A stretch of DNA of 64,000 nucleotides, taken from Acidobacteriota bacterium (GTDB lineage Bacteria; Acidobacteriota; Blastocatellia; UBA7656). The notes beneath the pieces are model-generated. The model saw nothing but the letters and a program-made list of their open reading frames with translations, had not been told where the DNA came from and ran no database searches. This document shows positions 4,439-43,857 of this stretch, one piece after another (the first letter of the stretch is position 1; each line of letters starts with the position of its first letter). The translations under genes and the position numbers were made by a program. The stretch is from positions 254 through 64,253 of the forward strand of contig JBBPIH010000032.1 in assembly GCA_038040455.1 (NCBI GenBank), written 5' to 3'.

Positions 4439-4974
4439 ACGGGCGGCTTCAACAGCTTTGTTATCTCGAGCGCGAGATGCTCAGGTGAGAAGTCGCCCGC
4501 CTGAACCGCAAAGTCCGCCTGAGCATAATCCGAACCCCTCTGTTCTAGTAGCTCTCTCATTTCATCTTCATCACCCAGCAGCGGACGCGACCGGTCGCCC
4601 CTGATTCTTCCGAGGCACACCTCGAGTGGACAGTCGAGCCAAACGGTCTTCCCAATCGCGCGCAACGAGGCCCGGTTCTCTTCCGAAACATAAGCACCTC
4701 CGCCGAGCGCGATGACCGTGCGAACCATCTCACTGCACGACTGAAGCGCTTCGCGTTCTAAGCGGCGAAACTCTGACTCGCCAAAGTCGGCAAAGATTGC
4801 TGGGACCGATTTGCCGACCTGGTTTTCAATAAGTCCGTCGAGATCGAAGAAGTCGTATCGGAGGTGACGGGCCAGCGCTCGGCCGACGGTGGTCTTGCCC
4901 GCGCCCATGAAGCCGATCAGAAAAATCGGCTCGTCTCCTGCCAGAGAGTTATTCGGCGCGGTCATCGTTATCAC
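4432..4974 (-). CDS. aroK: Shikimate kinase
   Basis: Walker A FMGAGKTTVGRALA. Size about 180 aa. Its start overlaps the aroA stop (GTGA overlap), implying an aroA-aroK operon. Confidence 0.9.
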   Translation of the reverse strand: MITMTAPNNSLAGDEPIFLIGFMGAGKTTVGRALARHLRYDFFDLDGLIENQVGKSVPAIFADFGESEFRRLEREALQSCSEMVRTVIALGGGAYVSEENRASLRAIGKTVWLDCPLEVCLGRIRGDRSRPLLGDEDEMRELLEQRGSDYAQADFAVQAGDFSPEHLALEITKLLKPPVQ

Positions 4975-10904: not shown

Positions 10905-10980
10905 CGTTGCACCCGCTTTACCGAGTCGAGGCGTTGAGCCTTAGCATCCTAGCACGGCACTACTTTCACAACCAAAGTGC

Positions 10981-11187
10981 AATGGAGTTCAGGGTTCAGG
11001 GTTCAGAGTTCAGGGTTCAGGGTTCAGAGTTCAGGGTTCAGGGTTCAGGGTTCAGGGTTCAGGGTTCAGAGTTCAGGGGATGCAGTTGTTGACTAGATTT
11101 ACACACCGACCCAGGAACGCCAAACGTTCAACCCTGAACCCTGAACCCTGAACCCTGAACCCTGAACTCTGAACCCTGAACTCCATT
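10981..11187. repeat. Inverted heptamer-array element (GGGTTCA/GAGTTCA type)
   Basis: Left arm 10984-11078 has about 13 tandem 7-nt units GGTTCAG/AGTTCAG. Unique centre 11079-11124. Right arm 11125-11184 has 7-8 reverse-complement units CCTGAAC/CTCTGAA. The termini AATGGAGTTCAG / CTGAACTCCATT are complementary. Located between divergent genes. Confidence 0.95.
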
Positions 11188-11239
11188 GGTTAGTGGTTCC
11201 CCCGCCGAGCGGGGCCGTGCTACACTTTCTTCCTTGCGC

Positions 11240-12594: not shown

Positions 12595-12769
12595 TTGTTA
12601 CAACGAACAAACATGACCGCAAGACTTGACCCGGTGTTTGACTGAGGTCTGTTGTCCTGCTTAACGCTGTTATTTCGCCGCTCGCTTCTCGTGCCGTACG
12701 TCAACGCGGCTTCACAAGTGATATCTTCTTCAAGGCCAAGTTTACTTTGAGCAGGCATCGAGTTTCGCG

Positions 12770-13264
12770 CTACTTGCTTTGCCTCAACTGCTTCGCCACG
12801 CGTTTGGCAATGGCAGCTATAAACCGGTCGTCGTCAATCAGCGATGACCGAATCCGAGGTTGTTCAGTTGGCTCGGCATGCTCTCGGAGAATGTCATTTA
12901 TCTGAACTTCAAAGGAGGTGCCTGATTGCATAGTCCCTTGTTTGAGACGCTGAACAATATCGGCATCGAGAGAAATAGATACCCGTACTTTGCAGTTGCG
13001 AGGATCTGTGTCACCGGGCTTGATTCTCGCGACGTAGCGCCCTCGTTGCCCTTCGCTGAAGTCATATTCGCCACGCATCGGCCCTTCCTCGATGTGTCGG
13101 CCCAAATGGCTCTCGATGGCCTCAGCGACGAAATCCTGCTCATCGATGCTGTCCGCATCGCAAAAAAGCTTAAGTTTTGTAGCCACTTCTCGCGGGAGCC
13201 TCAAAGTCTTCTTGATCCGTTTGGTCCGTGAGGGGTATTGCGATTCACTATTATCGGTTTTCAT
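12770..13264 (-). CDS. brnA: BrnA-like antitoxin (extended, DUF4415-like core)
   Basis: Contains GEYDFSEGQRGRY, typical of BrnA/DUF4415 antitoxins. Overlaps the stop of the upstream BrnT gene by 14 nt. Confidence 0.6.
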   Translation of the reverse strand: MKTDNSESQYPSRTKRIKKTLRLPREVATKLKLFCDADSIDEQDFVAEAIESHLGRHIEEGPMRGEYDFSEGQRGRYVARIKPGDTDPRNCKVRVSISLDADIVQRLKQGTMQSGTSFEVQINDILREHAEPTEQPRIRSSLIDDDRFIAAIAKRVAKQLRQSK

Positions 13265-13523
13265 AGTTCTTCTGCTCTCTGCGTGTCGGAATTCTCGCGC
13301 TGATTAGTCGTATTACTTCGCCTCGTTCAGCGTAGGACACAACCAGCAAACGACGCTGATTCGATTCACCGAGAAGTAGAAACCTGGCTTCGTCAATCGA
13401 ATGATCCGGGTCCGGAAGCGCAACGGCAAGATCATCGTCAAATACCGTCGCAGCCTCGATGAAAGTCACATTGTGATCTCGTTCCTTGCCGTCTGCTTTC
13501 TCGTCGTCCCACTCAAATCTCAC
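13251..13523 (-). CDS. brnT: BrnT family toxin (DUF497)
   Basis: MRFEWDDEKADGKERDHNVTFIEAATVFDD ... HSIDEARFLLLGES ... IRLISARIPTRREQKNY matches the BrnT pattern (FEWD..K, HS..E.R, RIISAR..E..Y). Confidence 0.8.
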   Translation of the reverse strand: MRFEWDDEKADGKERDHNVTFIEAATVFDDDLAVALPDPDHSIDEARFLLLGESNQRRLLVVSYAERGEVIRLISARIPTRREQKNYENR

Positions 13524-13636: not shown

Positions 13637-13665
13637 TTAGCCTTCGCCACGCTTCGTGCTATAAT
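13637..13665 (+). promoter_or_regulatory. Candidate sigma70-type promoter for the 13713 gene
   Basis: TTAGCC (13637-13642), a 17-nt spacer, then a perfect TATAAT (13660-13665). It sits 47 nt upstream of ATG 13713. Sequence match only. Confidence 0.3.
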
Positions 13666-13712
13666 CCCGCCGCTCGCTTCCCGCGCAACAAATTCAGAGT
13701 GGAGTCACGGTC

Positions 13713-14301: not shown

Positions 14302-14378
14302 CCCTGGGAACGCAGGCATCCCTGCCTGCTTTGGCGATGCGTGAGAAGAGGCAGGCAGGGATGCCTGCGCTCCCAGGG
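14302..14378. repeat. 28-nt-arm palindrome (REP-like)
   Basis: CCCTGGGAACGCAGGCATCCCTGCCTGC (14302-14329) pairs with GCAGGCAGGGATGCCTGCGCTCCCAGGG (14351-14378). One mismatch, 21-nt loop. A related TGCGCTCCCAGG motif recurs at about 26148-26160. Confidence 0.9.
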
Positions 14379-14552
14379 ACGCGGTGTGCCCGCCACCACC
14401 AAGACAACCTAACCTCAGAAAAAGGATACAAAGCACTCGCTGAACCTCACGCCTGTTGGACCAGGGGGTTCGCTCCCGTGTTTTTGACTTGGAAAGCCTG
14501 CGGCCATATAATCCGGCCGGTCGATTTTAGAGTCGTCGGAGGCAGCCTCAAA

Positions 14553-15350
14553 GTGCCGTTGCGGTTCATTCACCTTCTCGTCGTGCTGGCCGCGTGCTCT
14601 TCCCTTGCAGCATGCAGTCGCCCGTCGCGAGCCCACAACAATTCGGTTCAACCTCTCGTCGAGCCCTTCGCTGATTCCGATGGGGATGGCGTTCCCGATA
14701 AGGCCGAGCTGCGCTCGTTTGATGACCGGCAGAACTTCGCGCGATGGTTTGCGGCAATCGCCGAATTGCAGTTTTATCGAATGAGCGATGAATGGAACGC
14801 GGAGCAGCGCGATTGCGCAGGCCTGGTTCGTTTCGCGTGGCGTGAAGCGTTGCGCAAGCACGACCGGCCCTGGTTCCAGAAGATGGGCGCCGAGTACGAG
14901 TCGATAGCACCCGACGTCCGGGCGTTCACCCTGGAGACGAGTCCGTTAGGCGCGAAGCTCTTTCGAACGGATTTCGGCTCGTTTCAGGAGGGTGACCTTG
15001 CAGGTGGCAAGTTCTCGGAATTCGCGGATGCGCGCACGCTGAAGAATTTCAACTGTGTCCTCGTAAGCCGTGACCGCCGCCGCGCCCAGCGAGGCGATTT
15101 GCTCTTCTTCCACCAACCCCGGGTTCAGAAATTCCCTTATCACGTGATGATGTTCATAGGCGACCCGCTCAAGGATGGCGAAGGCGCAGCGGACTGGGTC
15201 GTTTATCACACGGGGTCTTCGCCAACGGACGAAGACACGGTGAAAAAAGTTCGACTGTCGGTTTTGGATCTTCACCCCGACAAACGCTGGCGACCGATTA
15301 AAGGCAATCCAAACTTCCTGGGGTTCTATAGACCAAAGTTCTTGGAGTAG
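14553..15350 (+). CDS. DUF1175 (YfaT-like) lipoprotein
   Basis: GTG 14553 gives VPLRFIHLLVVLAACSSLAAC (lipobox LAAC). DSDGDGVPDKAELRSFDDRQNFARWFAAIAE ... RDCAGLVRFAWREAL is as I recall for DUF1175 proteins that accompany bacterial alpha-2-macroglobulins. The track's longer 14331 start overlaps the palindrome. Confidence 0.6.
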   Translation: MPLRFIHLLVVLAACSSLAACSRPSRAHNNSVQPLVEPFADSDGDGVPDKAELRSFDDRQNFARWFAAIAELQFYRMSDEWNAEQRDCAGLVRFAWREALRKHDRPWFQKMGAEYESIAPDVRAFTLETSPLGAKLFRTDFGSFQEGDLAGGKFSEFADARTLKNFNCVLVSRDRRRAQRGDLLFFHQPRVQKFPYHVMMFIGDPLKDGEGAADWVVYHTGSSPTDEDTVKKVRLSVLDLHPDKRWRPIKGNPNFLGFYRPKFLE

Positions 15351-15399: not shown

Positions 15400-18300
15400 G
15401 TGTTTCAATTTGATTTTTCTTCTCCCCGTGCTCCCCGTGTTCCCCGTGGTTTTATGACTGTCGCCGTCTATTCACTGATGATCGCCGGAGCGCTCTCGAT
15501 ATCGACGATGCGGCTCCGCGCTCAGAGCGGAGCGGTCGAAACCCCAGCCCCCTCAGGAGCGGCTTCCGCAGCCGATTACAAGCCGTATTTTTCACTGTCG
15601 ACCAATCGAACCTATGGCACCGCCGATCGAACGCGCGTCTGGATCAACTACGTGGGCGTCGACCATATGGACTTTCGTGTCTATCGAGTCGGTGACCCCG
15701 TCGAGTTTTTCAAGCAGCTAGAGGATCCCCACCAGATGGGCGAGGGTGAGAAGTACCAGATCATCTCGGCACTCAAGAAAGAACCGTCTGCTCTCGAAAA
15801 GGTCCGCAAGTTCAAAGTGTCGATCTTCAAATCAATCAAAAATTATTTCCGCAATCAGCTTCGCCGAGGAACACGCGAGTCACTGAATGAGAAACTGGGC
15901 CGTGAAGGCGACCGCCAGCCGCTCAATGTCGCCGACTACGCACGCGTTCCGCTGCTCAACCCCGATCGGATGGTCAGCAGTTGGCGTGAAAGGCTGACAC
16001 CGCTCGATAACCTCTACGACACGCGGATGGTGATGCTGGGCAAGCGCGACCCGGGCGTGTACCTGATTGAAGCCGTCAACAATGACCTTCGTGCTTACAC
16101 GATAGCGATCGTCACCGACCTGACGATGATCAACAAGACCACTCCGGCTGGTGAGATGCTCATCTACACGGCTGATCGCAAATCCGGCGCGCCTCGTGGA
16201 GGAGTAAAAGTCGAAGTCATCAACGCGAAGAAAACCGTCGCCACCGGAACGACCGACAAGAGCGGCATGTTGAAGACTCACATCGAGCGGCCGAAGCGAC
16301 AGGCTGAACAGGCGCCGGAGGACCGCGATCCCGAAGCCGAGGCGTCCAGCGAGGGGCGCGACTCTTATCTGATCACCGCACGCGACCGCGACCATTTCGC
16401 GCTCTCGGATCTTGCAGCTTATTACTTCGGCAGCGTCGAGGGCGGCGAGGAGGGCGAAGGCGAAAGCGAGGGCGGCGGCGGACTCACGAGTTACATCTAC
16501 ACTGACCGGCCCGTCTACCGTCCCGCTCAGAAGGTGTTCTTTAGGGGAATATTGCGGACCGCCGGCGAGCGCGGATATGAGTTACCGAGCGGCGCTGTCA
16601 AAACAACTATCGAAGATCCGAACGGCGGCAAGCTACTGGAAGCCGATCTGAACCTGACCGCGCGCGGAAGCTTCAGCGGGGCGGTCGACGTAGCGCCGGG
16701 CGCGCCGCTCGGCCAATATCGCATCATCGCGAAAGCCGGCGCCGCAACAGCAAGCGAATACTTCGAAGTCCAGGAGTACAAAAAACCCGAGTACAAAGTA
16801 ACTGTCACGACTCCCAAGAAGTTCGTCGAGGTAGGCCAGAAGGTCAAGTTCTCAATTGAAGCGCGCTACTTCTTTGGCGAGCCTGTCAAAGAGGCAGACG
16901 TCACTTATTACATCTATAGATCTCGATATTATCCCTGGTGGTGGGCAGCAGATGATGACTCCGCCCTCGACGAGGCCGAGAATGAGGAAGAAGGCGGCTA
17001 CGGATACGGCAACGATATGGTCAAAGACGGCCAGGGGGTTTTGAAAGCGGACGGCAAGATGGAAGTTGAGTTCGAGGTCCCGGCCGCGGATGAGAAAGAT
17101 TCTTCGGACTACACCTACAGGCTGGAAGCGCAGGTCACCGACGAGTCACGCCGTACGATCGAGGCCCGCGCGAGTTTCGTCGGCACGCGCGGCAACGTCA
17201 TCGCCAACACTCGCACCGATCGCTACGTTTACTACGAAGGCGACACGGCAAAGATCAAGGTTAACACCAGCGATTACGAGGGCCGTCCGCTTGCCGCCGG
17301 CGTTACACTCAAGTTCATCGAGCGCCGATGGGATGCAACGCCGAAGCAAGACGAGTCGGGCAGGACGCGCAACGAGTACACCATGCGCGAGCGCGAGTTG
17401 GCCTCAGCCGATGTCACGACCAATCAGCAGGGCGAGGCCAGCTACGACTACGCGGTCACCGGGCCCGGCAGCATAAACATCAAGACAATAGTCAAAGACG
17501 GCACGAAGCAATACCCATCGAATGAGGATTCCTTGTGGGTGGCTGATAAGAAGAGCGAGTGGTCGGACTGGTCTTATGGCGACGAGCAGTCGATCAAGCT
17601 GGTCCCCGACAAGAAATCCTATCAACCTGGCGAAACGGCTCACGTGCTGGCTATGTTGCCTACCGACAAGGCCCACTTGCTGGTGACGACCGAGCTGACC
17701 GGCGTGATGAGTGCGCGAATCGTCGACGCTCCGTCGCGCGCGGTGATGATCGACGTGCCGATCGAAGGGCGATACGCGCCGAACGTGTACCTCAACGTCG
17801 CGTATGTGAAGGACGGCGAGATGTACATGCACGACCGCTTGCTCAGCGTGCCGGCCAAAAGCAAGTTCCTCGACATCGAGGTGCTTGCTGACAAGAAGGA
17901 GTACAAGCCTCGCGAGACGGCTCGCTACACTATACTCGCTCGCAACTCGGACGGCTCTCCAGCGCCGGGCGCGGAGTTGAGCCTCGGCGTCGTCGACGAA
18001 GCAATCTACAGCGTTAAGCCAGATCAGACGCGCGACATACGCAAAGCCTTTTATGGGCGGCGCTACAACCAGGTGCAGACGAGCTTCACGATCTCTTATT
18101 ACTTCAGGGGCCACTCCGGCGAAAAGCCCTCGCCGCTCGCCGCGAACAAGCGCGCTTATCAACTGGCTGATTTCAAGAACGAAGGCCAGTATGCCGAGCC
18201 AACTATTCGAAAGGATTTCAAGGATACAACATTCTGGCAGCCCGACATCGTAACGGGCGCCGACGGCAAGGCCAGCGTTGAAGTCAAGCTGCCCGACAAT

Positions 18301-20334
18301 CTGACTACGTGGAGAGCGACCGTGCGCGGCGTAACTGCGGACACGCGAGTTGGCTCGGCGATCTTGAAGTTTGTCTCGCGCAAGAACCTGATCCTCAGAC
18401 TCGCGACACCACGCTTCCTGACCGAAGGCGATACTGTCACATTGTCGGCGATCGTTCACAACTATCTCGAGACAGCCAAGGCAGTGCAGATTTCAATCGA
18501 CGTAACCGGCGCGCGGCTTCTGAACGCAGCTTCCCAGACGATAACGATTCCGCAGCAGGGTGAACATCGGATCGATTGGCGTGTTGCCGCAAACCAGGTC
18601 GGAGAGCTGAAGCTGCTGGCAAAAGCGCTGACTGACCAGGAATCCGACGCGGTAGAGATACCTCTCGAGGTTGTGCCTCACGGATTGAAGCAGACCCTCG
18701 GCGGAGCTACGACGCTTTCGGACGACAGCGCCGAAAAGACCATCTCGCTCAACCTTCCAGCCAATGCTCACTTGCAAGCGCGCTCGCTTCGCATCGACGC
18801 GGCGCCTTCAATAGCCGGAACGCTGTTCGGCGCGCTTGATTATCTGACCGCGTATCCGTACGGCTGTACCGAGCAGACGATGTCGAGCTTCTTGCCTAAC
18901 GTAATCGTTGCCGGGGCGCTGAAAGAAGTAAAAACAACCTCGATTCGAGCGACGAATGATCTGGGCACGAAGGTTCAACGCGGGATGGATCGGCTCTACG
19001 GCTTCCAGCACGATGACGGCGGTTGGGGGTGGTGGAAGGATGACAAGACCGATCCGTTCATGACCGCTTACGTGATCGACGGGCTGACGCTTGCGTCTCG
19101 CGCCGGCTACGCCACAGATAAGTCACGAATCACCAGCGGCCGGGACAAGCTGATGCAAATGATCGCCAGCCGCAAGAGCGACGACGGACAGGCGATCGAT
19201 CCCGAAACGCGGGCCTACATGATCTACGCGCTCGGCGAAAGCGGGGGCCTGGACGCGGCATTGATCAATGAGCTGTTCGCCAGGCGCGGAGAGCTACAGC
19301 CTTACGGCCGCGCGCTGCTTGCGCTGGCGCTTAAGCAGCACCGCGATGACGCCCGGGCGAAGCAAGTCGCGGGTGAGATCGAGCAATCCGCTCGCTCCAA
19401 CGAGTACGACACGCACTGGGAATCGAAGCACAGCTCGCACGGTTACACGGTTGAGAACGACACCGAAGCGACGGCGCTCTCGCTCAAAGCGCTGGCTCGC
19501 ATCAATCCGCAAAGCGCGCTGCTGGCAAAGGCAGCAAGATGGCTGGTCGGCAGCCGGCGCAACGGCCATTACTGGGAGTCGACCAAGCAGACGGCCTTCG
19601 CGATCTTTGGATTGACCGATTATGTGAAAGTGAGCAAAGAGCTTTCACCTGATTACAACGTGGTCGTATACATAGACGGCCAGGAGGTACTGTCGCGACG
19701 CGTGACCCCCGAAGACCTTACGTCCGCGCAGGCGTTTGTCATCGAGCGCAAAGGTTCGCAGCTCGGCAGCTCGAATCAAGTGAGGGTGGTCAAGACCGGA
19801 AAGGGTGCGCTGTATCTTTCGACGACGCTCAGCTATTTCACCCGCGATGAAGAGATTCAAGCGCAAACAACGCCGAATCTGACGCTGACGCGCGAGTACT
19901 TGCGGCTGCGGGTGGTCGAAAGCGGCGAGCAGCCGCGCTGGGAGATCACCCCGCTGACAGGAGAGCTGCGCTCGGGTGATTTGATTGTGTCGCGACTTCG
20001 CGTTCAGGGTTCGAGAGCGCGGTACATGATGGTCGAAGACCCGATTCCCGCCGGTTGCGAACAAGTCGATCGAGTCAGCGGACTCGATCTGGCTTACATC
20101 GAGGGCGCGGGCACAAGGCGATGGACTGATTGGTACAGCGCGCGTGAATTCCGCGATCAGAAGACGGCGTTGTTCGTGGACTACTTCGACGGCGACGCGA
20201 TGTTTCAAGTCGCGCTGCGGGTGCAGGTGCCCGGCGACTTTCGGGTAGCACCGGCTCGCGCGGAGTTGATGTATCAACCGGCCGTGCAGTCGAACACCTC
20301 GAGCGCGAAGGTGAGTTTTCTGGATAAGAAGTGA
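15400..20334 (+). CDS. Bacterial alpha-2-macroglobulin family protein with intact thioester motif
   Basis: 1644 aa. N-terminal signal/anchor. Thioester site YPYGCTEQTMSSFLPN (CxEQ). Size and repeated beta-sandwich-like composition are typical of bacterial A2M. SD AAGGAGG sits 8 nt before GTG 15400. Confidence 0.9.
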   Translation: MFQFDFSSPRAPRVPRGFMTVAVYSLMIAGALSISTMRLRAQSGAVETPAPSGAASAADYKPYFSLSTNRTYGTADRTRVWINYVGVDHMDFRVYRVGDPVEFFKQLEDPHQMGEGEKYQIISALKKEPSALEKVRKFKVSIFKSIKNYFRNQLRRGTRESLNEKLGREGDRQPLNVADYARVPLLNPDRMVSSWRERLTPLDNLYDTRMVMLGKRDPGVYLIEAVNNDLRAYTIAIVTDLTMINKTTPAGEMLIYTADRKSGAPRGGVKVEVINAKKTVATGTTDKSGMLKTHIERPKRQAEQAPEDRDPEAEASSEGRDSYLITARDRDHFALSDLAAYYFGSVEGGEEGEGESEGGGGLTSYIYTDRPVYRPAQKVFFRGILRTAGERGYELPSGAVKTTIEDPNGGKLLEADLNLTARGSFSGAVDVAPGAPLGQYRIIAKAGAATASEYFEVQEYKKPEYKVTVTTPKKFVEVGQKVKFSIEARYFFGEPVKEADVTYYIYRSRYYPWWWAADDDSALDEAENEEEGGYGYGNDMVKDGQGVLKADGKMEVEFEVPAADEKDSSDYTYRLEAQVTDESRRTIEARASFVGTRGNVIANTRTDRYVYYEGDTAKIKVNTSDYEGRPLAAGVTLKFIERRWDATPKQDESGRTRNEYTMRERELASADVTTNQQGEASYDYAVTGPGSINIKTIVKDGTKQYPSNEDSLWVADKKSEWSDWSYGDEQSIKLVPDKKSYQPGETAHVLAMLPTDKAHLLVTTELTGVMSARIVDAPSRAVMIDVPIEGRYAPNVYLNVAYVKDGEMYMHDRLLSVPAKSKFLDIEVLADKKEYKPRETARYTILARNSDGSPAPGAELSLGVVDEAIYSVKPDQTRDIRKAFYGRRYNQVQTSFTISYYFRGHSGEKPSPLAANKRAYQLADFKNEGQYAEPTIRKDFKDTTFWQPDIVTGADGKASVEVKLPDNLTTWRATVRGVTADTRVGSAILKFVSRKNLILRLATPRFLTEGDTVTLSAIVHNYLETAKAVQISIDVTGARLLNAASQTITIPQQGEHRIDWRVAANQVGELKLLAKALTDQESDAVEIPLEVVPHGLKQTLGGATTLSDDSAEKTISLNLPANAHLQARSLRIDAAPSIAGTLFGALDYLTAYPYGCTEQTMSSFLPNVIVAGALKEVKTTSIRATNDLGTKVQRGMDRLYGFQHDDGGWGWWKDDKTDPFMTAYVIDGLTLASRAGYATDKSRITSGRDKLMQMIASRKSDDGQAIDPETRAYMIYALGESGGLDAALINELFARRGELQPYGRALLALALKQHRDDARAKQVAGEIEQSARSNEYDTHWESKHSSHGYTVENDTEATALSLKALARINPQSALLAKAARWLVGSRRNGHYWESTKQTAFAIFGLTDYVKVSKELSPDYNVVVYIDGQEVLSRRVTPEDLTSAQAFVIERKGSQLGSSNQVRVVKTGKGALYLSTTLSYFTRDEEIQAQTTPNLTLTREYLRLRVVESGEQPRWEITPLTGELRSGDLIVSRLRVQGSRARYMMVEDPIPAGCEQVDRVSGLDLAYIEGAGTRRWTDWYSAREFRDQKTALFVDYFDGDAMFQVALRVQVPGDFRVAPARAELMYQPAVQSNTSSAKVSFLDKK

Positions 20335-20400
20335 GCGCGTCGAAGGCTTATCAGACTGAACAGTGCCGGGAGCTATTGCCAAACAATAGGAGGTTTGCAA

Positions 20401-20664
20401 ATGGCTACTCTAAGCGCGGATGTTCTGGAAGACGATATGGCGGTATCTTTGGCGCGTGTCCTGGCCGCGGCGAATAGACGTGCCCGCGAGCTGAACATAG
20501 ATGTTCCACAAAGCCTCATTTCCGTCACGCAGGTGATCGATAATGGCCCGGGCTGGCGGATCAACTACGGCCCTACGGATTATATTGGGCGGCGCGGTGG
20601 CGACTTGGTCATTGAAGTGGATGCTACCGACGCAAGCGTCAAACAGGTGCTGCACGAGCAGTAA
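20401..20664 (+). CDS. Hypothetical small cytoplasmic protein (cassette 1 downstream of A2M)
   Basis: ATG 20401 is preceded by AGGAGG (20388-20393). 87 aa, no recognisable motif. Confidence 0.6.
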   Translation: MATLSADVLEDDMAVSLARVLAAANRRARELNIDVPQSLISVTQVIDNGPGWRINYGPTDYIGRRGGDLVIEVDATDASVKQVLHEQ

Positions 20665-20677
20665 GGAAAGGGTTACG

Positions 20678-20826
20678 GACTACTTCGACGGCGACGTTTC
20701 AAGTTGCGTTGCGCGTTCAGGTGCGCGGCGAGTTTCGAATGGCGCCGACGCGCGGAGTTGATGTATCAGCCTACGTTTCAAGCTAACACCTCGAGCCCGA
20801 AGATGAGTTTTCTCGATAAGAAGTAA
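20678..20826 (+). pseudogene. Orphan, decayed copy of the A2M gene 3' end (copy 2)
   Basis: Aligns by eye to 20179-20334 with two indels (-5 and -2 nt). Piecewise translation gives DYFDGD / FQVALRVQVRGEFRMAP / AELMYQPTFQANTSSPKMSFLDKK*. The native end is DYFDGDAMFQVALRVQVPGDFRVAPARAELMYQPAVQSNTSSAKVSFLDKK*. Confidence 0.9.
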
Positions 20827-20897
20827 GGGCGGCGAAGCTGAGGCTAGGCGCGAGCAGTAGTTAGCCCGCCCCGTGTTCGCCGTGATATTCTGCGTGC

Positions 20898-21202
20898 ATG
20901 CGTTTCCAAGAATTGGAGGCGGAGTGGGACGACGATAACGTGGAGCACGTTGCAAGGCACGGAGTGGAACCGGAGGAAGTCGAAGAGATCGTATACGAGG
21001 ACTGCCACCCCTCGTGGACTGTCCGCGGGCGCCGTCGCGGAGTCCGTGAAATGCGTTGGACAATCTTGGGCAAACGTGCGCCGGTCGTTATCTGATCGCC
21101 GCATTCGCACCGTCCCCGAAGCGCGGGGTGTGGCGTGCGGTAACCGCGAGGGAAATGGAACGGCGAACTCGACGGAGGTATCAACAGTGGCGCAAAAACT
21201 GA
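20898..21202 (+). pseudogene. BrnT-like (DUF497-like) toxin gene, frameshifted
   Basis: N-terminal frame: MRFQELEAEWDDDNVEHVARHGVEPEEVEEIV...RWTILGK. The C-terminal part continues in another frame: TCAGRYLIAAFAPSPKRGVWRAVTAREMERRTRRRYQQWRKN*. One extra A in the A-run 21072-21074 would restore a single frame. Confidence 0.65.
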
Positions 21203-21486
21203 CGGCAGCAAAGCGGCGGGCTCTTAGCGAAGAGGCCCTGGAATGGGATCATCTTAACGACGAAGATCTCGCGCGGCTTTTCGACGAAGGCAAACCCGTT
21301 CACATCCGCCTGCGGCGGCCACCGCCGAAGACGCTTACGGTCGCGCTCGATGCGCAGACGCTGAACCGGCTCCGGCGTGTTGCGCGAAGGAAACAAGTTG
21401 GCCCAAGACAACTCGCGGCGATCTGGATCTCAGAGCGACTCGGTGAGGAACCGGCCACCGCACCCAGACAGCGTCGGACGGGCTAA
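21187..21486 (+). CDS. BrnA / ribbon-helix-helix-like antitoxin
   Basis: GTG 21187 overlaps the toxin stop. LTVALDAQTLNRLRRVARRKQVGPRQLAAIWISERL resembles the BrnA/CopG-type C-terminal region. Confidence 0.6.
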   Translation: MAQKLTAAKRRALSEEALEWDHLNDEDLARLFDEGKPVHIRLRRPPPKTLTVALDAQTLNRLRRVARRKQVGPRQLAAIWISERLGEEPATAPRQRRTG

Positions 21487-21527
21487 CCAGTTCGTCAACC
21501 CAATCGGATGAGTCTTCCTACCATTTC

Positions 21528-21600
21528 GGGCCTGGCAGTTTCCGCGTGGCTGCGGCTCGCGCGGAGTTGATGTATTAGCCGACGGGGCAATCTAACGCAG
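21528..21600 (+). pseudogene. Orphan copy of the A2M gene 3' end (copy 3, shorter, with premature stop)
   Basis: Translates PGSFRVAAARAELMY*PTGQSN versus native PGDFRVAPARAELMYQPAVQSN. The Gln codon CAA in the native gene is TAG in this copy. Confidence 0.8.
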
Positions 21601-21692
21601 CCCAAATAGTTTAGGGAGTTGCTTTGCCGTCCGCTGATGTTGCTTTCATGGGATGGTCAACATTAGGTTGGACCGCCGGGCCATGGGTAGCT

Positions 21693-22268
21693 ATGAAATT
21701 GTTGGTATTCACAACACTTTATTCTCTCACGGCCTTGGTGGGCTTTGCTCCTTTTGCCGCGCACGGCCAGACGAGAACTTATGTTGACACACGAAAGCTA
21801 CTACTCAAAGTAGAGCGATCCCCAGCCAACAAGGCTCTTAAGAAGCTATTTGAGGAACGCGACACAAAGAGAGCAGACTTAATTCAAGCTCTACACGACC
21901 CGGAACAGAAAGTGAATCTCAACTCGCAGGTAATCCTAAAGTACTTGGCCGACCCCCAGGCGCTAGCCGCATTGGAAGAATGGTACGGCCTTCAACGAAA
22001 GCTGGGCAAAGATTATTCGATGCCGAAGATGGAAGTTCTGTCAGAGGTAAAATACCTGGAGGGGATTTATCGAGACCTAGGAGAGTTGGTGCTGAAGAAC
22101 TTACATCCAGAGTCAAAGGACGTATCGGTAGCTTACAACAAAAGAATGAGAACTGCTCTCATTGAGGTGATTATTGGTGAGGTGTTCACTGAGGGATGGC
22201 ACGTAGTCGTAAGGAGAGAGAATAGAAAGTGGCGATTGATTTCAAACCGTCTTGTATGGCAATCATAA
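21693..22268 (+). CDS. Hypothetical secreted protein (cassette 3), visibly lower GC
   Basis: ATG 21693 gives MKLLVFTTLYSLTALVGFAPFAAHGQ (signal peptide). AT-richer codon usage than its neighbours. No recognisable domain. Confidence 0.6.
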   Translation: MKLLVFTTLYSLTALVGFAPFAAHGQTRTYVDTRKLLLKVERSPANKALKKLFEERDTKRADLIQALHDPEQKVNLNSQVILKYLADPQALAALEEWYGLQRKLGKDYSMPKMEVLSEVKYLEGIYRDLGELVLKNLHPESKDVSVAYNKRMRTALIEVIIGEVFTEGWHVVVRRENRKWRLISNRLVWQS

Positions 22269-22350
22269 GTTCAATGATGGGCGCTGACATTCGAGCATCA
22301 CAGTTCCGACCCGGGCGCTAGCGAGGTGGTCGAGAACAGGGTTTATTGCC

Positions 22351-23205
22351 ATGATCGAAAGAATCTTTCACGCACTCGCTTCGGCCTCGCGCGAACTGTT
22401 TCGCCGCTGGGGCGCACTACTCATTCTGTTAGTGCTCTACCTGGGGATGCTCGGCGCCATCTACCTGTTCTTCGTCACCCGCGAGGCAACCGTAGGCCAG
22501 TTGCTTCTGTCGTTATTGTTGGCGCTCGCGGCGCCAGTTCTGTTCCTGGTCATTCAGACGATGGCTGCGAGGTACACCGCTGGAGACGGCCGCACATTGC
22601 CATTGCTGGGCGGATCACTGCGCGACTTCTGGAAGCTGCTGGTGATTTCGCTGCCTCTCATTCTCATCGCGGCGGTGGCGATTTATCTTTTCGGCAAGTT
22701 TGAGACAACCGCTCCGGCGGCGACCGTTCGCGAAGCCGTGCGCACGCTGCCCTCGCCTCCGCGCGCGCCCGTGCCGAAGCCTCAGCCGGTTAATTGGAAA
22801 TCCATCGCGATCACCACCCTTCAGTACCTCGTGTTCTGTTTAGTGCTGCCGCTAACCGCAATTCACCTGTGGATCGTGACTGCCCGCGATGGACTCAAAC
22901 AAGCGGTCAAAGGATCCGCGCGCATTCTCGGTCGAGCTTTCGCGCCCCAGGCGGTGATCACCTACGCGATCGGCTTCGTCTTTTTCGCCGTCGTTCCCTA
23001 CTTCCTGATTGTGACAAAGACATCGGCCGTTAGTGCCTGGCTTGACGCCGCGCTGTTAGGCTCGCGGCTGGTGTTGGCGGTTGTGTTCTCGCTCGTCGGT
23101 TGGGTTGTGACTGTCGGCGCGCTGGGAAGACTGTCTGCGGAAGGTGGTAGGGAGAATGTTGCTCAAACGAGTGAGAGCGCCGGTCATGTTCCTGCCGAAG
23201 CATAA
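22351..23205 (+). CDS. Multi-pass membrane protein, unknown function
   Basis: Several hydrophobic spans (ALLILLVLYLGMLGAIYLFFV, LLLSLLLALAAPVLFLVIQ, VISLPLILIAAVAIYLF, LQYLVFCLVLPLTAIHLWIV, FVFFAVVPYFLIV, LVLAVVFSLVGWVVTVGAL). Its 3' end overlaps the next gene by 50 nt. Confidence 0.65.
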   Translation: MIERIFHALASASRELFRRWGALLILLVLYLGMLGAIYLFFVTREATVGQLLLSLLLALAAPVLFLVIQTMAARYTAGDGRTLPLLGGSLRDFWKLLVISLPLILIAAVAIYLFGKFETTAPAATVREAVRTLPSPPRAPVPKPQPVNWKSIAITTLQYLVFCLVLPLTAIHLWIVTARDGLKQAVKGSARILGRAFAPQAVITYAIGFVFFAVVPYFLIVTKTSAVSAWLDAALLGSRLVLAVVFSLVGWVVTVGALGRLSAEGGRENVAQTSESAGHVPAEA

Positions 23206-29194: not shown

Positions 29195-30820
29195 ATGCTA
29201 AGAACCAGAGCCTTCTTCATGATATGCGTGTCACTGCTCGGTTACGCGCCGGTACTTGCGCAAGACGCCGCAGACATCAACGCGAAGATTCGAAAAGAGG
29301 AGACGGACAACTCGCAGATCATGCGGACGATGCATTTTCTTACTGACATCCACGGTCCGCGTTTGACTGGCTCGCCGAATCTGAAAGCCGCCGGTGAATG
29401 GGCGATCAAGCAGATGACCGCCTGGGGTTTTGAGAACGGCCATCTGGAACCGTGGGACTTCGGTCACCCGGGCTGGATGAACGAACGCTTTTCGGGCTTT
29501 ATCACATCGCCGGTGAAGGACACGCTTACCTGTGAAGTGCTCGCATGGACCGCGGGCACTAATGGACCGGTGACGGCGAAGGCTTATCAGATGGTCCTTC
29601 CCGAAAAGCCCACTCAGGAAGAGTTCACTGCGTACCTTGCAACGCAGAAGGACAAAGTCAAAGGGAAGTTCGTGCTTGCGGGCAAGCATCAGATGGTCGC
29701 CGTGAATCTTACTCCGCCTCCGCGCCGGCAAGACGACAAGCAGGCGAAGGAACGCTATGATCCGAACAATCCGAACGCGGGGCAGGGTCGCAGGGGTCGC
29801 GGGCCTCAACAGGAAGACCCGGGGAAGCTGACGGCGCGGCAAATCGATGAGCAACTCGATCAGTTCCTTCTTACAAGCGGGGCATTGATAAGAGCGAACG
29901 ATGCCGGACGCGAGCATCGCCAGATTCGGGCTTTTAACAATCGCACGTTCGACGCGGCCAAGGCGCTCCCGACCGTAGTGATGAGCAACGAGGACTATGG
30001 CCGCATCTCGCGCATTCTCGCGGACGGCCAGCCTGTCGAGCTTGAGTTCAACATAGTCAATCGCTGGTACCCCGAAGGCAAAACCGCTTACAACACGATC
30101 GCCGAAATTCCGGGCACGGACAAGACAGACGAAGTAGTGATGCTTGGCGGGCATCTCGACTCGTGGCACTCGGCGACTGGAGCTACGGACAACGCGATCG
30201 GCTGCGCGGTGATGATGGAAGCCGCGCGGATTCTGAAAGCCATCGGCGTGAAGCCTCGCCGCACGATTCGAGTCGCGCTTTGGAGCGGTGAGGAGCAAGG
30301 CTTGCTCGGCTCACAGGCTTATGTGAAGGAGCACTTCGGAACGTTCGAGGAGCCGAAGCCTGAATACAACAAGCTGGCCGCTTACTTCAACATCGACTCG
30401 GGGACGGGACGCGCGCGCGGCGCAAGCGTGTTCGGACCACCGGAGGCCGCAGCGATCGTGCGCGCAGCACTTGCGCCGTTCGAAGACGTTGGCGTGATGG
30501 GAGCGATTCCGTCTAAGAGCCGCGCGCTCGGCGGCACGGACAGCACTTCGTTCAGTCAGGCGGGCCTTGCCGGTATCGGGATAGGGCAGGACCCGATCGA
30601 ATACAATTCAGCTACGTGGCACACGAACCTGGACACCTACGAACGGATCATCTTAGACGACGCGAGGAAGGCAGCGATAGCGATTGCCGCTGCCGTGTAT
30701 CAGCTTGCGATGCGGGATGAGCTGCTTCCGCGCTTCAGCAAGGAGAACATGCCGCCGCTTCCGCCGAAGCCCGGCACACCCGCGACTCCAACACCGCAGG
30801 CGCCGCCCGGGAACAACTGA
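29195..30820 (+). CDS. M28 family metallopeptidase (aminopeptidase-like), secreted
   Basis: ATG 29195 after AGGAGA gives [23 protein letters not shown]. Zinc-site region [30 protein letters not shown] and [15 protein letters not shown]. Confidence 0.85.
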
Positions 30821-30826
30821 ACCTAC

Positions 30827-31083
30827 GGTTCAGAGTTCAGGGTTCAGAGTTCAGGGTTCAGAGTTCAGGGTTCAGGGTTCAGAGTACAAGCTTTAGCTTG
30901 CTACGGAGAGCAACCTAAAGGTTGTACTCTGAACCAGAAACCAGAAACCAGAAACCAGAAACCAGCAACCAGCAACCAGCAACCAGCAACCAGCAACCAG
31001 CAACCAGCAACCAGCAACCCTGAACCCTGAACCCTGAACCCTGAACCCTGAACCCTGAACCCTGAACCCTGAACTCGGAACCC
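30827..31083. repeat. Inverted heptamer-array element, asymmetric and multi-unit
   Basis: Left arm: 8 units GGTTCAG/AGTTCAG (30827-30882). Centre 30881-30930 has the small hairpins CAAGCT-TT-AGCTTG and CAACC-TAAA-GGTTG. Right arm: (AACCAGA)x4, (AACCAGC)x8, (AACCCTG)x7. The element fills the spacer between stop 30820 and ATG 31089. Confidence 0.95.
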
Positions 31084-31088
31084 TTTTT

Positions 31089-31547
31089 ATGAGCGAGATC
31101 AAACGAATCAACGACCAACTCAAGCGGGCGTTTGAAGGTAAGGCGTGGCACGGGCCGTCTGTCTCTGAAGTACTGGCGGGCGTCACTGCCGAGCAAGCGG
31201 CCGCGCATTCGATCCCGGGCGCGCACAGCATCTGGGAGCTTACTCTGCACATCGCTACATGGGAGCGCGTAGGCCGCAGGCGGGTAGAAGAATCGGATCC
31301 AATCGACGTCTCGGACGAAGAAGACTGGCCGGCAGTTGAAGACACGAGCGACGGGGCATGGCAAAACGCGCTTGAAGAACTCCGGCGCAACCACGAAACC
31401 CTCCGCGCAGCGATCAGGGGGCTAGATGAAGCGCGGCTTGAGGAGATCGTGCCTGGCACGCAGTACTCGATCTACTTCCTTTTACACGGCGTGATTCAGC
31501 ACGACCTTTATCACGCGGGGCAGATCGCGCTGTTGAAGAAAGCGTGA
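31089..31547 (+). CDS. DinB family protein
   Basis: 152 aa. AWHGPSVSEVL ... HSIWELTLHIATWE ... LLHGVIQHDLYHAGQIALLKK (DinB-type His triad context). Confidence 0.8.
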   Translation: MSEIKRINDQLKRAFEGKAWHGPSVSEVLAGVTAEQAAAHSIPGAHSIWELTLHIATWERVGRRRVEESDPIDVSDEEDWPAVEDTSDGAWQNALEELRRNHETLRAAIRGLDEARLEEIVPGTQYSIYFLLHGVIQHDLYHAGQIALLKKA

Positions 31548-35470: not shown

Positions 35471-35528
35471 CGCAGCGGCGTTAGCCGAATTTCTTGACGC
35501 AAGATCGATCAGTAATTACATTGTGAGT

Positions 35529-35783
35529 ATGAAAGCGCAGATCGTTAGAATAGGCAATTCTCAAGGCATCCGAATTCCCAAGCCTTTCTTACAGCAGAGC
35601 GGGATAGCGAAGGAAGTCGACATCGAAGTGCAAGGCAACCAGATAGTTCTTAGATCGTTGCGCCGTGCCCGCGAAGGATGGGAAGAATCTTTCCGTCAGA
35701 TGGCGAGCAAAGGTGACGACCGCTTGCTGGATGAGAAACTTCTGAAACAGACCAGTTGGGATGAAGACGAGTGGCAGTGGTAA
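35529..35783 (+). CDS. mazE: MazE / AbrB-SpoVT family antitoxin
   Basis: MKAQIVRIGNSQGIRIPKPFLQQSG (SpoVT/AbrB swapped-hairpin motif). Overlaps the following MazF-like gene. Confidence 0.8.
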   Translation: MKAQIVRIGNSQGIRIPKPFLQQSGIAKEVDIEVQGNQIVLRSLRRAREGWEESFRQMASKGDDRLLDEKLLKQTSWDEDEWQW

Positions 35784-36100
35784 TCAAACGATTCGATGTC
35801 TTTCTTGTAGACTTGGACCCCACGGTCGGCAGCGAGATCAAGAAGACGCGGCCCTGCGTTGTAGTTTCACCAGATGAAATGAACCGGTACATAAGAACAG
35901 TCATCGTCGCGCCCATGACGACCCGCGGCACTTCCTATCCCACAAGAGTTTCATGCAAATTCAAAGGCAAGCAGGGGAAGATTGTATTGGATCAGCTTAG
36001 AACGGTTGATAAGGTGAGACTTGTGAGGAAACTTGGAACGGTGACTCGGCCGACTCAAGAGCACGTACTTTCGGTATTGGCAGAAATGTTCGCTGAATGA
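35771..36100 (+). CDS. mazF: MazF/PemK family endoribonuclease toxin
   Basis: IKRFDVFLVDLDPTVGSEIKKTRPCVVVSPDEMN ... TVIVAPMTT ... IVLDQLRTVDKVRL. Confidence 0.85.
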   Translation: MAVVIKRFDVFLVDLDPTVGSEIKKTRPCVVVSPDEMNRYIRTVIVAPMTTRGTSYPTRVSCKFKGKQGKIVLDQLRTVDKVRLVRKLGTVTRPTQEHVLSVLAEMFAE

Positions 36101-38129: not shown

Positions 38130-38412
38130 AAGTGATGCGTGAAGCGTGAAACGGGATGCGTGGCTCGTGATGCGTGAAACTGTTTGGGAAGGCCCTATGT
38201 GAAGGATCACAAGTGGGGAAGGGAGGCTTTGCCCCGCTCCTTGAAAAGTCTCCTCTACCAAGACAAGAGCGGGGGTAAACCACCCTTCCAGACCTGTGAT
38301 CCTTTCGCAGTAACTTGAAACTTCATCTTCACGCATAACGCATCACGCGCGTCACGATCACGCATCCCGCATCACGAATCACGTTTCGTTTCACGTGTTA
38401 CGCATCACGCAT
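38130..38412. repeat. Composite element: degenerate ACGCATC-type heptamer arms around a nested 99-bp palindrome
   Basis: Left arm GAAGTGATGCGTGAAGCGTGAAACGGGATGCGTGGCTCGTGATGCGTGAAAC. Nested palindrome 38204-38302 (GGATCACAAGTGGGGAAGGGAGGCTTTGCCCCGCTCCTTG ... CAAGAGCGGGGGTAAACCACCCTTCCAGACCTGTGATCC). Right arm CACGCATAACGCATCACGCGCGTCACGATCACGCATCCCGCATCACGAATCACG... Confidence 0.9.
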
Positions 38413-40970: not shown

Positions 40971-41196
40971 TTTCGTGATGGGTGATGCCTCATTCGTGAA
41001 GCTCAAGGTCTAAGCTACCGTACCAGGATCACAGGTCGGGAAGGGTGGTTTACCCCCGCTCCTTGTACAGCCAACTCTGCCAAAGTCGAAAGACAAGAGC
41101 GGGGGTAAACCACCCTTCCCGACCGTGATCCTACCTATGGATCCTACCCAAACAGTTTCATGCATCACGGATTACGCATCACGATCAACGCATTAC
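40971..41196. repeat. Second copy of the composite element (opposite orientation to 38130-38412), inserted between msrP and msrQ
   Basis: Nested palindrome 41026-41131, with the right half nearly identical to that of copy 1 (AAGACAAGAGCGGGGGTAAACCACCCTTCC). Degenerate heptamer flanks TTTCGTGATGGGTGATGCC... and ...CATGCATCACGGATTACGCATCACGATCAACGCATTAC. The marker CCCAAACAGTTTC (41147-41159) is the reverse complement of GAAACTGTTTGGG (38176-38188). Confidence 0.9.
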
Positions 41197-42516: not shown

Positions 42517-42987
42517 TCAACTTTCATCCAATCCCTCCTTCAATCGCTCGATGTCAGCGAGGTCCTGTCCGCTTGATCGCAGGGACTTCAGCGCGATTAA
42601 TCCCCTGCGAGATACTAGCCAGAGCGGTCCGTTTTCCGATTCGACTTGAGATCGAGAGGCCCACACATCTACGATCTCCGGTGTCACCAGAAGCAGATCG
42701 AGTGACAAAACGTCGCCGGCCTCGGTATCCAGCTTCGAGAAGCGCCGAATTTCGATTGCGCCGTGCGCGAAAGTCATCGGCATCGCTGCGATCGTATAGC
42801 CGAGATGCTGAACTGCAGTCCTCGCCCTATCAAGATCGTTTGGAAGAATCAGAAGATCGATGTCAACGGTAGCGCGAGGGTCGCTGTAGACAGATACGGC
42901 TAAGCCACCACACACGGCGTAGTCGATCCCGCCCTCCGTAAGAGAGGAGATTATCTCCCTAAATTCATCGTAGAGATCCAGCATCAA
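42517..42987 (-). CDS. Nucleotidyltransferase-fold protein (DUF2204/MNT-like)
   Basis: GIDYAVCGGLAVSVYSDPRATVDIDLLI (G-G ... D-x-D nucleotidyltransferase signature). 156 aa. Its start overlaps the HAD gene stop. Confidence 0.65.
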   Translation of the reverse strand: MMLDLYDEFREIISSLTEGGIDYAVCGGLAVSVYSDPRATVDIDLLILPNDLDRARTAVQHLGYTIAAMPMTFAHGAIEIRRFSKLDTEAGDVLSLDLLLVTPEIVDVWASRSQVESENGPLWLVSRRGLIALKSLRSSGQDLADIERLKEGLDES

Positions 42988-43627
42988 CTGTTGCCATCAT
43001 AGCTTTCAGCAAATCTACCGGTTCGTCGAGCACAAGGTCCGGCGACGCGGCAAGCAATCGCTCACGGCTTGATCCGCCCCATAGCGCCGCTGCCGTCCGC
43101 GTTCCGGCTGCGCGCCCCATCAAAATGTCAGCCGGACTGTCGCCGATGACAAGCGTCGAACAAGGATCCGCGCCAAGCTGAGACATCGCGCGCAGCACCC
43201 CGTCGGGTTCCGGTTTGGGTCTTTCAACGTCATCCCCCCAAACACTCAAGTCTATCATTGAGCGCAGCCCGGTGAAGTCGATCTCCCGTTCGCCCGCGCG
43301 CCTCGGCTTTAACGACACGACAGCAATGCGAGCGCCCCCCTCATTCAGCGACTCGAGCAACTCGGCGATGCCGTCGTAAGGGGTGAGATGATGATGGTGA
43401 TTGGCGTAGTAGTGCTCTTCGAAGCTAACCAGCATCTCGTCGAGCAGTTCGCGGCTGTAGCGGCCGAGCACTTCTTGAGGAGTGACGTTCCAGAAATCGT
43501 GAAACTCGTCTTCGTTTAATTCGAGCCCTGTGTGCAATCTGATCGAGTAAAGAAACGCCCCGCGGTACGCGGGTTCCGAGTGGGCGAGCGTTCCGTCAAA
43601 ATCGAAGATGAAGCAATCGAAATCCAT
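42965..43627 (-). CDS. HAD-superfamily hydrolase (phosphoglycolate phosphatase-like)
   Basis: Motif I FIFDFDGTLAHS, motif II VVSLKPR, motif IV VIGDSPADILMG. Confidence 0.8.
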   Translation of the reverse strand: MDFDCFIFDFDGTLAHSEPAYRGAFLYSIRLHTGLELNEDEFHDFWNVTPQEVLGRYSRELLDEMLVSFEEHYYANHHHHLTPYDGIAELLESLNEGGARIAVVSLKPRRAGEREIDFTGLRSMIDLSVWGDDVERPKPEPDGVLRAMSQLGADPCSTLVIGDSPADILMGRAAGTRTAAALWGGSSRERLLAASPDLVLDEPVDLLKAMMATVDAGSLR

Positions 43628-43634
43628 GAAAGAT

Positions 43635-43848: not shown

Positions 43849-43857
43849 GTTGACCCG

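Follow-up and report, generated by a model that had tools for sequence, protein, structure and literature searches.

Probably displaced 3' ends of an alpha-2-macroglobulin gene at a cargo hot spot in an acidobacterial operon

Minimal mobile elements, as known from Neisseria, have conserved flanks, cargo that varies between strains and sites that are empty in some of them, with recombination in the flanks and no mobility genes. Another kind of array is found at polymorphic toxin loci. In the model for rhs genes, a core fragment, its tip and any intervening genes are excised and re-enter as circles by a homologous single crossover, and the old tips end up further downstream (Jackson et al. 2009, PMC2935791). 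At type VI secretion system (T6SS) loci of Vibrio cholerae, effector-immunity modules are displaced sequentially, by a proposed anchoring in conserved sequence upstream and illegitimate joining on the far side (Kirchberger et al. 2017, PMC5361080). A conjugation experiment in E. coli gave mostly single crossovers of re-circularised fragments, duplicating 109-950 bp of a gene end, and true homology-facilitated illegitimate recombination (HFIR) in the same experiment gave deletions (PMC3240628). When prophage e14 (or phage 21) enters icd, it brings a new 3' end for the gene, and the original stays behind as the pseudogene icdC (PMC13626634). The present account concerns a 64-kb stretch of contig JBBPIH010000032.1 (the whole stretch is called the window) from an acidobacterium of the class Blastocatellia. 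Here the displacement architecture previously described at polymorphic toxin loci is seen at an ordinary conserved operon gene of uncultured soil Acidobacteria, the gene for alpha-2-macroglobulin (A2M), whose 3' end is present three times in front of unrelated small genes.

The three copies lie in direct orientation (Table 1), as a preliminary description of this DNA had claimed and as alignment, a 20-mer scan and blastn all bear out. Copy 1 is the working end of the gene. Copy 2 is 83% identical to it over 150 aligned nt, with gapless blocks of 80-83% identity, and has 5-nt and 2-nt deletions; its translation is out of frame. Copy 3 is 76% identical to copy 1 over 67 nt (range about 76-79%) and has TAT-TAG where the gene has TAT-CAA, a Gln-to-stop change. 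Both the indels and the new stop had been reported before and were found again in the alignment. The 20-mer CGCGCGGAGTTGATGTATCA, with up to 3 mismatches allowed, matches only the three copies in 64 kb, where 0.02 matches are expected, and blastn against A2M 3' ends gives E 7e-40 for copy 2 and 6e-9 to 5e-17 for copy 3; these values rule out chance similarity of the three segments. In the 64-kb window no other gene has a duplicated 3' end. Copies 1 and 2 remain alike beyond the stop codon (GCGCGTCGAAG vs GGGCGGCGAAG), for 11 nt and not for the 18 nt or so given earlier, and this 11-nt motif also follows the A2M stop in several other haplotypes. Copies 2 and 3 are non-coding scars of earlier A2M 3' ends. 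Their cargo is as first described: an 87-aa protein (p87) after copy 1, a BrnT/BrnA-like pair with a frameshifted toxin gene after copy 2 and a low-GC secreted protein of 191 aa (p191) after copy 3. For annotation, copies 2 and 3 are best labeled A2M pseudogene relics and the interval a variable region; the practical consequence is small.

The layout had been likened to the orphan C-terminus arrays at contact-dependent inhibition (CDI) and Rhs toxin genes, and the likeness is apt (PMC2935791). As in rhs and CDI arrays, fragments from the 3' region of an intact gene stand behind it, in direct orientation and of varied length, with different genes after each. As in rhs arrays, new units would enter at the front and old ones would be shunted to a silent position, without a dedicated recombinase. 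In contrast to the rhs and CDI genes, A2M is not a polymorphic toxin. It is a protease-trapping protein, and the repeated part is the conserved end of its bMG10 domain, not a variable toxin tip with an immunity gene; none of the cargo is within the gene or related to it. The displaced ends (orphans) of A2M are also short (about 80-157 nt) and decayed, and most haplotypes stack cargo with no orphan. The A2M locus works like the rhs, CDI and T6SS displacement arrays and is not a strict member of that family; no new mechanism is called for.

A doubt already raised in the preliminary description, that the copies were duplicated in assembly, was settled with Logan contigs (runs SRR28961253-67). Across the region, nine of these contigs, each assembled independently from a different sequencing run, are 100% identical to the window; eight extend over the three copies, and the ninth ends after copy 2. 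An artefact, i.e., a collapsed or chimeric join of co-occurring strains, has a probability close to nil. The data are metagenomic, and one contig from a single run (L107; labels such as L001 stand for the A2M loci gathered for comparison), which corresponds to window 19302-20697 and is otherwise identical to it, has six variants clustered at 20208-20250 within copy 1 and terminates 20 nt into copy 2. Copies that are 17-24% divergent, however, would not confuse an assembler, and beyond the independent contigs that reproduce the layout, orthologous junctions occur in unrelated samples (L233, L234 and L238). The variants of L107 may be a short tract imported from another allele, or a mixture of strains.

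The interval between A2M and the next gene, which encodes a 284-aa membrane protein, is a recombination hot spot in the Blastocatellia clade of the window. The loci compared came from species-representative genomes (17), metagenomes (80), a pattern scan (about 70) and the contexts of p87 homologues (9). About 130 related Blastocatellia/Pyrinomonadaceae loci have the 284-aa gene after A2M, and at ≥50% amino acid identity nearly all loci of Blastocatellia/Pyrinomonadaceae type do. The gap between the two genes depends on the group. Among 36 more distant metagenome loci, it is shorter than 200 nt in 31 and at least 500 nt in 2; among 67 species genomes, 55 have less than 250 nt and 10 at least 500 nt. 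For the 26 loci of the window's clade (≥75% amino acid identity, both flanks present), the balance is 6 below 200 nt and 20 at 500 nt or more, with a range of 46-2565 nt. Empty sites exist, e.g., L001 and L027, where the 284-aa gene starts 62 and 46 nt, respectively, after the A2M stop. The preliminary description had proposed the junction as a cassette-stacking site, and that view stands: the number and content of the cargo vary, A2M and the gene at 22351 stay fixed, and the three-copy layout is not common to all relatives, since the cargo is polymorphic and most loci have no orphan. No description of A2M operons as a cassette site was found in the literature, which was searched only narrowly for bacterial A2M operons.

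Like the minimal mobile elements, the A2M-284-aa interval has conserved flanks, and between them cargo that varies or an empty interval, without mobility genes. Unlike them, the site lies inside an operon, its cargo is all co-oriented, and some haplotypes keep duplicated flank fragments. Across loci the cargo includes BrnT/BrnA, a DUF4329/JAB-like protein with p87, XisH/XisI, AbiGi, DUF4238, a 260-aa membrane protein, TPR and NHL-repeat proteins and several secreted proteins of unknown function, in all at least 12 families, tightly packed and on the operon strand. In window 20100-22500 there are no terminator-like sites and no promoter-like sites on the plus strand. The common orientation and the lack of such sites would fit expression of the cargo by read-through of the operon. 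Module borders vary between loci and cut through genes, and partial brnA genes and DUF4238 fragments are found in other loci. The interval is a mosaic of many illegitimate joins plus homologous exchange.

Tight packing on one strand is also what an integron-like or other dedicated cassette system would produce, in which promoterless cassettes are captured at a fixed site and the operon promoter drives their expression. The lack of terminator-like and promoter-like sites agrees with it, and toxin-antitoxin pairs are typical cargo of chromosomal integrons. The scan for attC motifs, however, gave a single weak RYYYAAC...GTTRRRY candidate (21590-21673; 0.28 expected) whose left box is derived from A2M, and there is no intI in the open reading frames (ORFs) scanned. 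No conserved repeat lies between cassettes in any locus, and the variable borders that cut through genes are a further point against it. An integron was rejected on the attC and intI results, and a dedicated cassette system of any kind is highly improbable. A diversity-generating retroelement was also rejected: mismatches between the copies are of all types and not confined to adenines, indels are present, and neither the cargo ORFs nor the 40 largest ORFs outside the locus have a reverse transcriptase domain.

An imperfect palindrome of about 85-90 nt (GTTCGTAGTAC...GTTACGAAC) has been observed right after the A2M stop in L026 (6751-6840) and L054 (562-650). L019, L024 and L025 also have the motif GTTCGTAGTA behind the A2M stop, and L027 and L037 have a less exact form of it there.

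Orphan ends are rare in relatives. A sensitive blastn search of all A2M 3' ends against the intervals detected no orphan in about 120 loci, including loci where the same cassettes are stacked two to four deep (L035, L026, L022 and L239). Exact-pattern scans for the p87/orphan junction of the window (J1) gave no match in the species genomes, and a degenerate pattern coding for AELMYQP never matched twice in one stretch. The initial view that orphans were unique to the window was overturned when the contexts of the closest p87 homologues brought out four more, in L233, L234, L236 and L238. The proposal that each cassette brings an A2M 3' end is not general: about 120 loci, many of them stacked, have none.

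In L233, L234 and L238, A2M is followed by the DUF4329 gene and p87, then by the J1 of the window, then by an orphan A2M end. The junction has the form of a stop codon, GG(A/C)AAGGGT(T/C)AC and GACTAC..., the last being A2M position -156. The L238 orphan is full length and carries the 2-nt deletion of window copy 2, which the L233 orphan lacks. Since the window and L238 share both J1 and the deletion, the orphans at J1 are orthologous, and J1 formed once, before the lineages split; the scar is real and old. The A2M genes of the lineages that share J1 are only about 79% identical, and with such divergence on the two sides of a common junction and deletion, the events are old, not recent. Most cargo turnover at the site leaves no scar, and the scars that are seen are old and inherited. 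The cargo that follows J1 is not the same in all of them: the window has brnT-brnA, L238 a brnT remnant and brnA, and L233 a sec230-brnA pair. The sec230-brnA pair follows an intact A2M gene in L030 and L033.

A second junction may have a similar history. In L236, brnA is followed by the last 75 nt or so of A2M including the stop (4629-4703) and then by a gene for a PDDEXK_4 nuclease, and the short flank after brnA resembles window 21487-21525. The brnA/orphan junction, that of copy 3, is tentatively considered common to the window and L236, which it probably is. L235 may hold a relic of the same junction.

The origin of each copy can be sought in the alleles. For copy 1 the best match is with the 3' ends of L021 and L023 (89%), loci with DUF4329-p87 or related cargo; for copy 2 it is with those of L026, L027 and L020 (87-88%, compared to 83% to copy 1). 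At the informative sites within 20201-20290, copy 1 is B-type in 6 of 6 and copy 2 is A-type in 7 of 7 (Fisher p 0.02-0.05). The window orphan is 87.9% identical to the L026-type end and 83.2% identical to the working end of its own gene; for the L238 orphan, which decayed independently, the values are 77.9% and 73.4%, and identity between the two working ends, of the window and of L238, is 87.8%. The body of the window A2M gene is L026-like (82-88%, versus 74-80% for the L021 group), an affinity that weakens or reverses near the 3' end. The best breakpoints for the shift from L026-like to L021-like sequence are near 19200 and 20050, though with alleles too mosaic for either to be decisive. 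The units of 3' end plus cargo have counterparts beside intact A2M genes in other loci: copy 2, the motif past its stop and brnTA line up with L046, L034 and L035, and the DUF4329-p87 pair stands behind A2M in several loci. The class split between copies 1 and 2, the same answer from the L238 orphan and the shift in affinity of the A2M body favor the arrival of a unit with a 3' end of its own, by which a resident end of the other class was displaced, over a duplication made in place.

Displacement of the 3' end by homologous recombination anchored in A2M is the likely explanation, held with considerable reserve. A segment from another haplotype, comprising an A2M 3' end and cargo, would join within the last 100-160 nt or so of the resident A2M gene. 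On that side the recombination would be homologous, and the join would give A2M a fresh, intact 3' end, while the old end and its cargo are pushed downstream, where the old end decays. In the inferred order, which has two displacement steps, copy 3 with p191 was resident, copy 2 with brnTA was inserted in front of it, and copy 1 with DUF4329-p87 came in front of that. Later and smaller deletions would have removed the DUF4329 gene and broken brnT. The incoming DNA could be a circularised fragment that enters by single crossover or, equally, a linear fragment joined homologously on one side and illegitimately on the other. The recombination machinery of the host would suffice, with no dedicated recombinase; general recombination is preferred to a dedicated system because no recombinase domain was found in the ORFs scanned, a single weak attC-like site was found, signs of a diversity-generating retroelement are missing and the repeats are unequal in length.

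A rival explanation starts with an in-place tandem duplication: unequal exchange of sister chromosomes would have doubled the stretch that runs from A2M position -156 through the first cargo, and the cargo behind the orphan would later have been exchanged with other haplotypes by ordinary homologous recombination. A plain duplication of this sort does exist at the same junction in a distant relative: L067 (2342-2985) has the first 167 codons or so (about 500 nt) of the 284-aa gene, then the A2M 3' end (81 nt) and then the full 284-aa gene. Replacement behind an orphan probably did occur, since different cargo follows the same junctions, both at J1 (window, L233 and L238) and at the brnA/orphan junction, where the window has p191 and L236 the PDDEXK_4 gene. 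However, the orphans of the window and L238 resemble the L026 class and not their own working ends, copies 1 and 2 differ in class at the informative sites, and three unrelated cargoes would need extra replacement steps. Duplication in place is unlikely.

Several observations weigh against displacement by recombination anchored in A2M. The allele-class signal comes from about 150 nt and from mosaic alleles; later recombination may have written over the working 3' end, whose present class need not be its class at the time of the event; and no sampled locus is the true donor or recipient. The base composition of the p191 gene, here the oldest cargo, is the most foreign, and the gene is missing from the closest relative, L238; a simple order with the newest unit in front explains neither fact. 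Most stacked arrays in relatives have no orphan, which means either that most insertions occur without duplication or that orphans are quickly deleted. There is a weak sign that donor-type sequence begins at about 20050, ahead of the repeat. It does not discriminate between single crossover of a circle and an illegitimate join on one side, and would weakly favor a linear fragment with a distant left crossover.

The T6SS loci of Vibrio are similar to the A2M locus in their upstream homology anchor, in the accumulation of retained downstream genes and in that plain replacement is commoner than displacement. In Vibrio, multiple copies in one genome are judged not to be duplications because they group with the alleles of other strains; the A2M copies, with their different allele classes, may be a similar case. 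In Vibrio, selection on immunity genes explains persistence; the cargo of the A2M locus, in contrast, is heterogeneous, and a toxin/antidote logic would apply only to DUF4329-p87 and BrnTA. The re-circularised fragments of the E. coli experiment match in size, and there too a duplicated gene end brackets foreign DNA. The experiment used a laboratory construct in E. coli, however, and circles in these Acidobacteria are hypothetical. One-sided illegitimate recombination (HFIR) had been the first model considered here and was revised, since in E. coli HFIR gave deletions and not duplications (PMC3240628).

Repeated integration of circles, of the Campbell type or site-specific, was the mechanism suggested in the preliminary description. 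A unit that carries its own 3' end does fit the layout, and a RecA-type single crossover by way of a circle is possible; the site-specific form finds no support. It would require small elements with an att site in the A2M 3' end that supplied a replacement end and later lost their integrase and most of their content. The arrangement is formally the same as icd/e14/icdC (PMC13626634): the gene stays intact and its original 3' end remains as a pseudogene fragment on the far side. However, e14 is 15 kb long, encodes an integrase and has a defined att core, whereas the A2M units are 0.3-0.8 kb in size, with variable repeat lengths and no recombinase found, and they contain relics of neighboring hot-spot genes, not mobile-element genes. 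In line with the first claim, no integrase or transposase was found: neither the ORFs of the cargo nor the 40 largest elsewhere in the window have a Pfam domain of an integrase, resolvase or transposase, and the called genes of the related loci examined have no recombinase domain. The repeats measure 157, about 105 and about 80 nt (the last in L236), with left boundaries at -156 (copy 2), about -105 (copy 3) and about -80 (the L236 orphan). Copies 1 and 2 do start with an identical 20-nt block, but this block is simply conserved coding sequence that most alleles share, and the junctions have no common att core. With about 120 loci, cargo-bearing or empty, free of orphans, site-specific integration is very unlikely.

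A more far-reaching idea is that the A2M 3' end serves as the shared handle of an integrase-free cassette exchange. Units would be excised as circles by recombination between direct copies and re-enter related A2M genes, orphans would be internal landing pads for the cargo of other strains, and, with the cargo co-oriented and no terminator-like site detected in the insert of the window, the operon promoter would express the captured genes. It is kept open by identical junctions (J1 and, probably, brnA/orphan) in front of different cargo in different lineages. Such junctions fit circles, and they fit equally well a later replacement of cargo behind an inherited orphan. An exchange handle of this kind is quite unlikely. 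With displacement anchored in A2M as the preferred explanation, the locus suggests that homologous recombination at hot spots generally gives rise to displacement as a by-product, which would not be special to toxin genes; the genes that collect at A2M are toxin-antitoxin-like, defense-like and secreted-protein genes. The natural series of haplotypes (empty, with a single cargo, stacked, with and without orphans) can be used to work out how such arrays form.

Table 1. Positions of the A2M gene, the copies of its 3' end, the cargo and the neighboring operon genes in the window.
Feature	Position	Strand	Remarks
DUF1175 gene, same operon, upstream of A2M	14331-15350		
A2M gene, 1644 aa, intact	15400..20334	+	Pfam: MG2, A2M_BRD, A2M, TED_complement, bMG10
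Copy 1, working 3' end	20178..20345	+	last 157 nt of A2M and 11 conserved nt past TGA
Relic of DUF4329/JAB-like gene	20366..20389	+	last 24 nt including TAG stop; alignment with L021, L022, L032 and L082 (intact 145-aa gene)
p87, conserved 87-aa protein of unknown function	20401..20664	+	
Junction J1, 12-nt spacer GGAAAGGGTTAC	20665..20676		between p87 stop and start of copy 2
Copy 2, displaced, non-coding	20677..20837	+	A2M position -156 to former stop TAA (20824-20826) and 11 nt
BrnT-like toxin pseudogene	20898..21202	+	1-nt deletion near 21067; weak Pfam BrnT_toxin match
BrnA/CopG-like antitoxin gene, 99 aa, intact	21187..21486	+	overlaps brnT
Copy 3, displaced, shorter, more decayed	21526..21603	+	A2M from about -105; TAG replaces CAA
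p191, 191-aa protein	21693..22268	+	N-terminal hydrophobic (signal-like) segment; longest ORF from 21624
284-aa membrane-protein gene, conserved	22351..23205	+	fixed right border of hot spot
Transpeptidase/SpoIID-domain gene, 907 aa	23144..25867	+	Pfam; stays downstream of 284-aa gene in relatives

The cargo behind copy 1 is what remains of a larger module. The p87 ORF is preceded by a GGAGG ribosome-binding site, and p87 has 157 homologues at ≥57% identity. It is paired with a DUF4329 gene in L021, L022, L032, L231-L234 and L236-L239, and probably in L082, where the pairing is seen by sequence alignment only. The pair stands after A2M in L021, L022, L032, L231, L233, L236, L238 and L239, and it is also found away from A2M, in an Armatimonadota genome. 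Nucleotide homology to the p87 module begins at 20366, inside the last 24 nt of the DUF4329 gene, so the first cassette of the window is a remnant of the two-gene DUF4329-p87 module. The DUF4329 gene was deleted three separate times, with different end points (20366-20389 in the window, about 7405-7450 in L035 and 689-712 in L235), and p87 was kept each time. The earlier suggestion of discrete small circles does not agree with a p87 unit that is the rest of a two-gene module whose upstream gene was lost three times, nor with the brnA and DUF4238 fragments elsewhere.

The same is seen with brnA, which many loci retain although their brnT is damaged or absent. That p87 and BrnA outlive their partners is the pattern expected if they are the antidotes of those toxins. 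The AlphaFold2 (AF2) model of p87 has a pLDDT of 85.8, and a fold search of the PDB with it gave no significant match. A weak cystatin/PepSY-like resemblance of the model may serve as a lead only.

The 1-nt deletion in the window's brnT was placed by alignment with the intact 101-aa genes of L026, L054 and L034. The brnTA module (20845-21489) is 88% identical to those of L054 and L026, and BrnA homologues at 62-90% identity are found in 17 related loci. Family assignments are weak on both sides of the pair: the intact BrnT homologue of L026 matches BrnT_toxin at E 2e-7, which is below the Pfam cut-off, and one BrnA homologue has a weak Pfam match to CopG_antitoxin. A second BrnT/BrnA pair lies on the minus strand just upstream of the A2M operon (12770-13523), with a BrnT match at E 1e-22 and a BrnA-containing ORF of 164 aa. 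It is flanked by a weak 36-nt direct repeat (12659-12694 and 13651-13686, 75% identical) that may be due to chance.

The p191 stretch differs in composition, with 44-50% GC compared to about 58-62% around it. There are 44 homologues at 42-67% identity; in the 4 contexts examined, all unrelated loci, neither an A2M fragment nor an A2M neighbor was present. The AF2 model has a pLDDT of 84.5, and no significant match was obtained in a PDB fold search.

The conserved gene string in which the hot spot lies consists of the DUF1175 gene, A2M, the 284-aa gene and the transpeptidase/SpoIID gene, in that order (Table 1).

Repeats of other kinds occur elsewhere in the window. Arrays of the heptamer GGGTTCA (7-13 copies) are found at three intergenic loci (10964-11197, 30798-31104 and 43607-43870). 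Each of them meets, after a short spacer, an array of the reverse complement TGAACCC, which gives long imperfect hairpins; the arrays are 80-97% complementary within and between loci, and one of the loci also contains (AACCAGC)n at 30932-31019. A repeat of about 90-140 nt, in direct and inverted register, is present at 38203-38346 and 40982-41124, where it flanks ABC-transporter and ferric-reductase-like genes; it may be an element like the repetitive extragenic palindromes (REP) or miniature inverted-repeat transposable elements (MITE). In 59026-61505 there are internal direct repeats of 120-300 nt, 73-79% identical and spaced about 1.4-1.5 kb, that span a 524-aa ORF with no Pfam match and its neighbors, which suggests tandem paralogous segments.

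The window also contains other genes of the toxin-antitoxin or nuclease type. An intact MazE/MazF (PemK) toxin-antitoxin pair (35523-36100) is located between an ABC-F type ATPase gene and a DUF885 gene, and there is a truncated AbiEii-like ORF at 42517-42987. A 554-aa protein with a PLD-like nuclease domain (50795-52459) and a small HNH endonuclease of 148 aa (63043-63489), neither of them a recombinase, could be defense-related.

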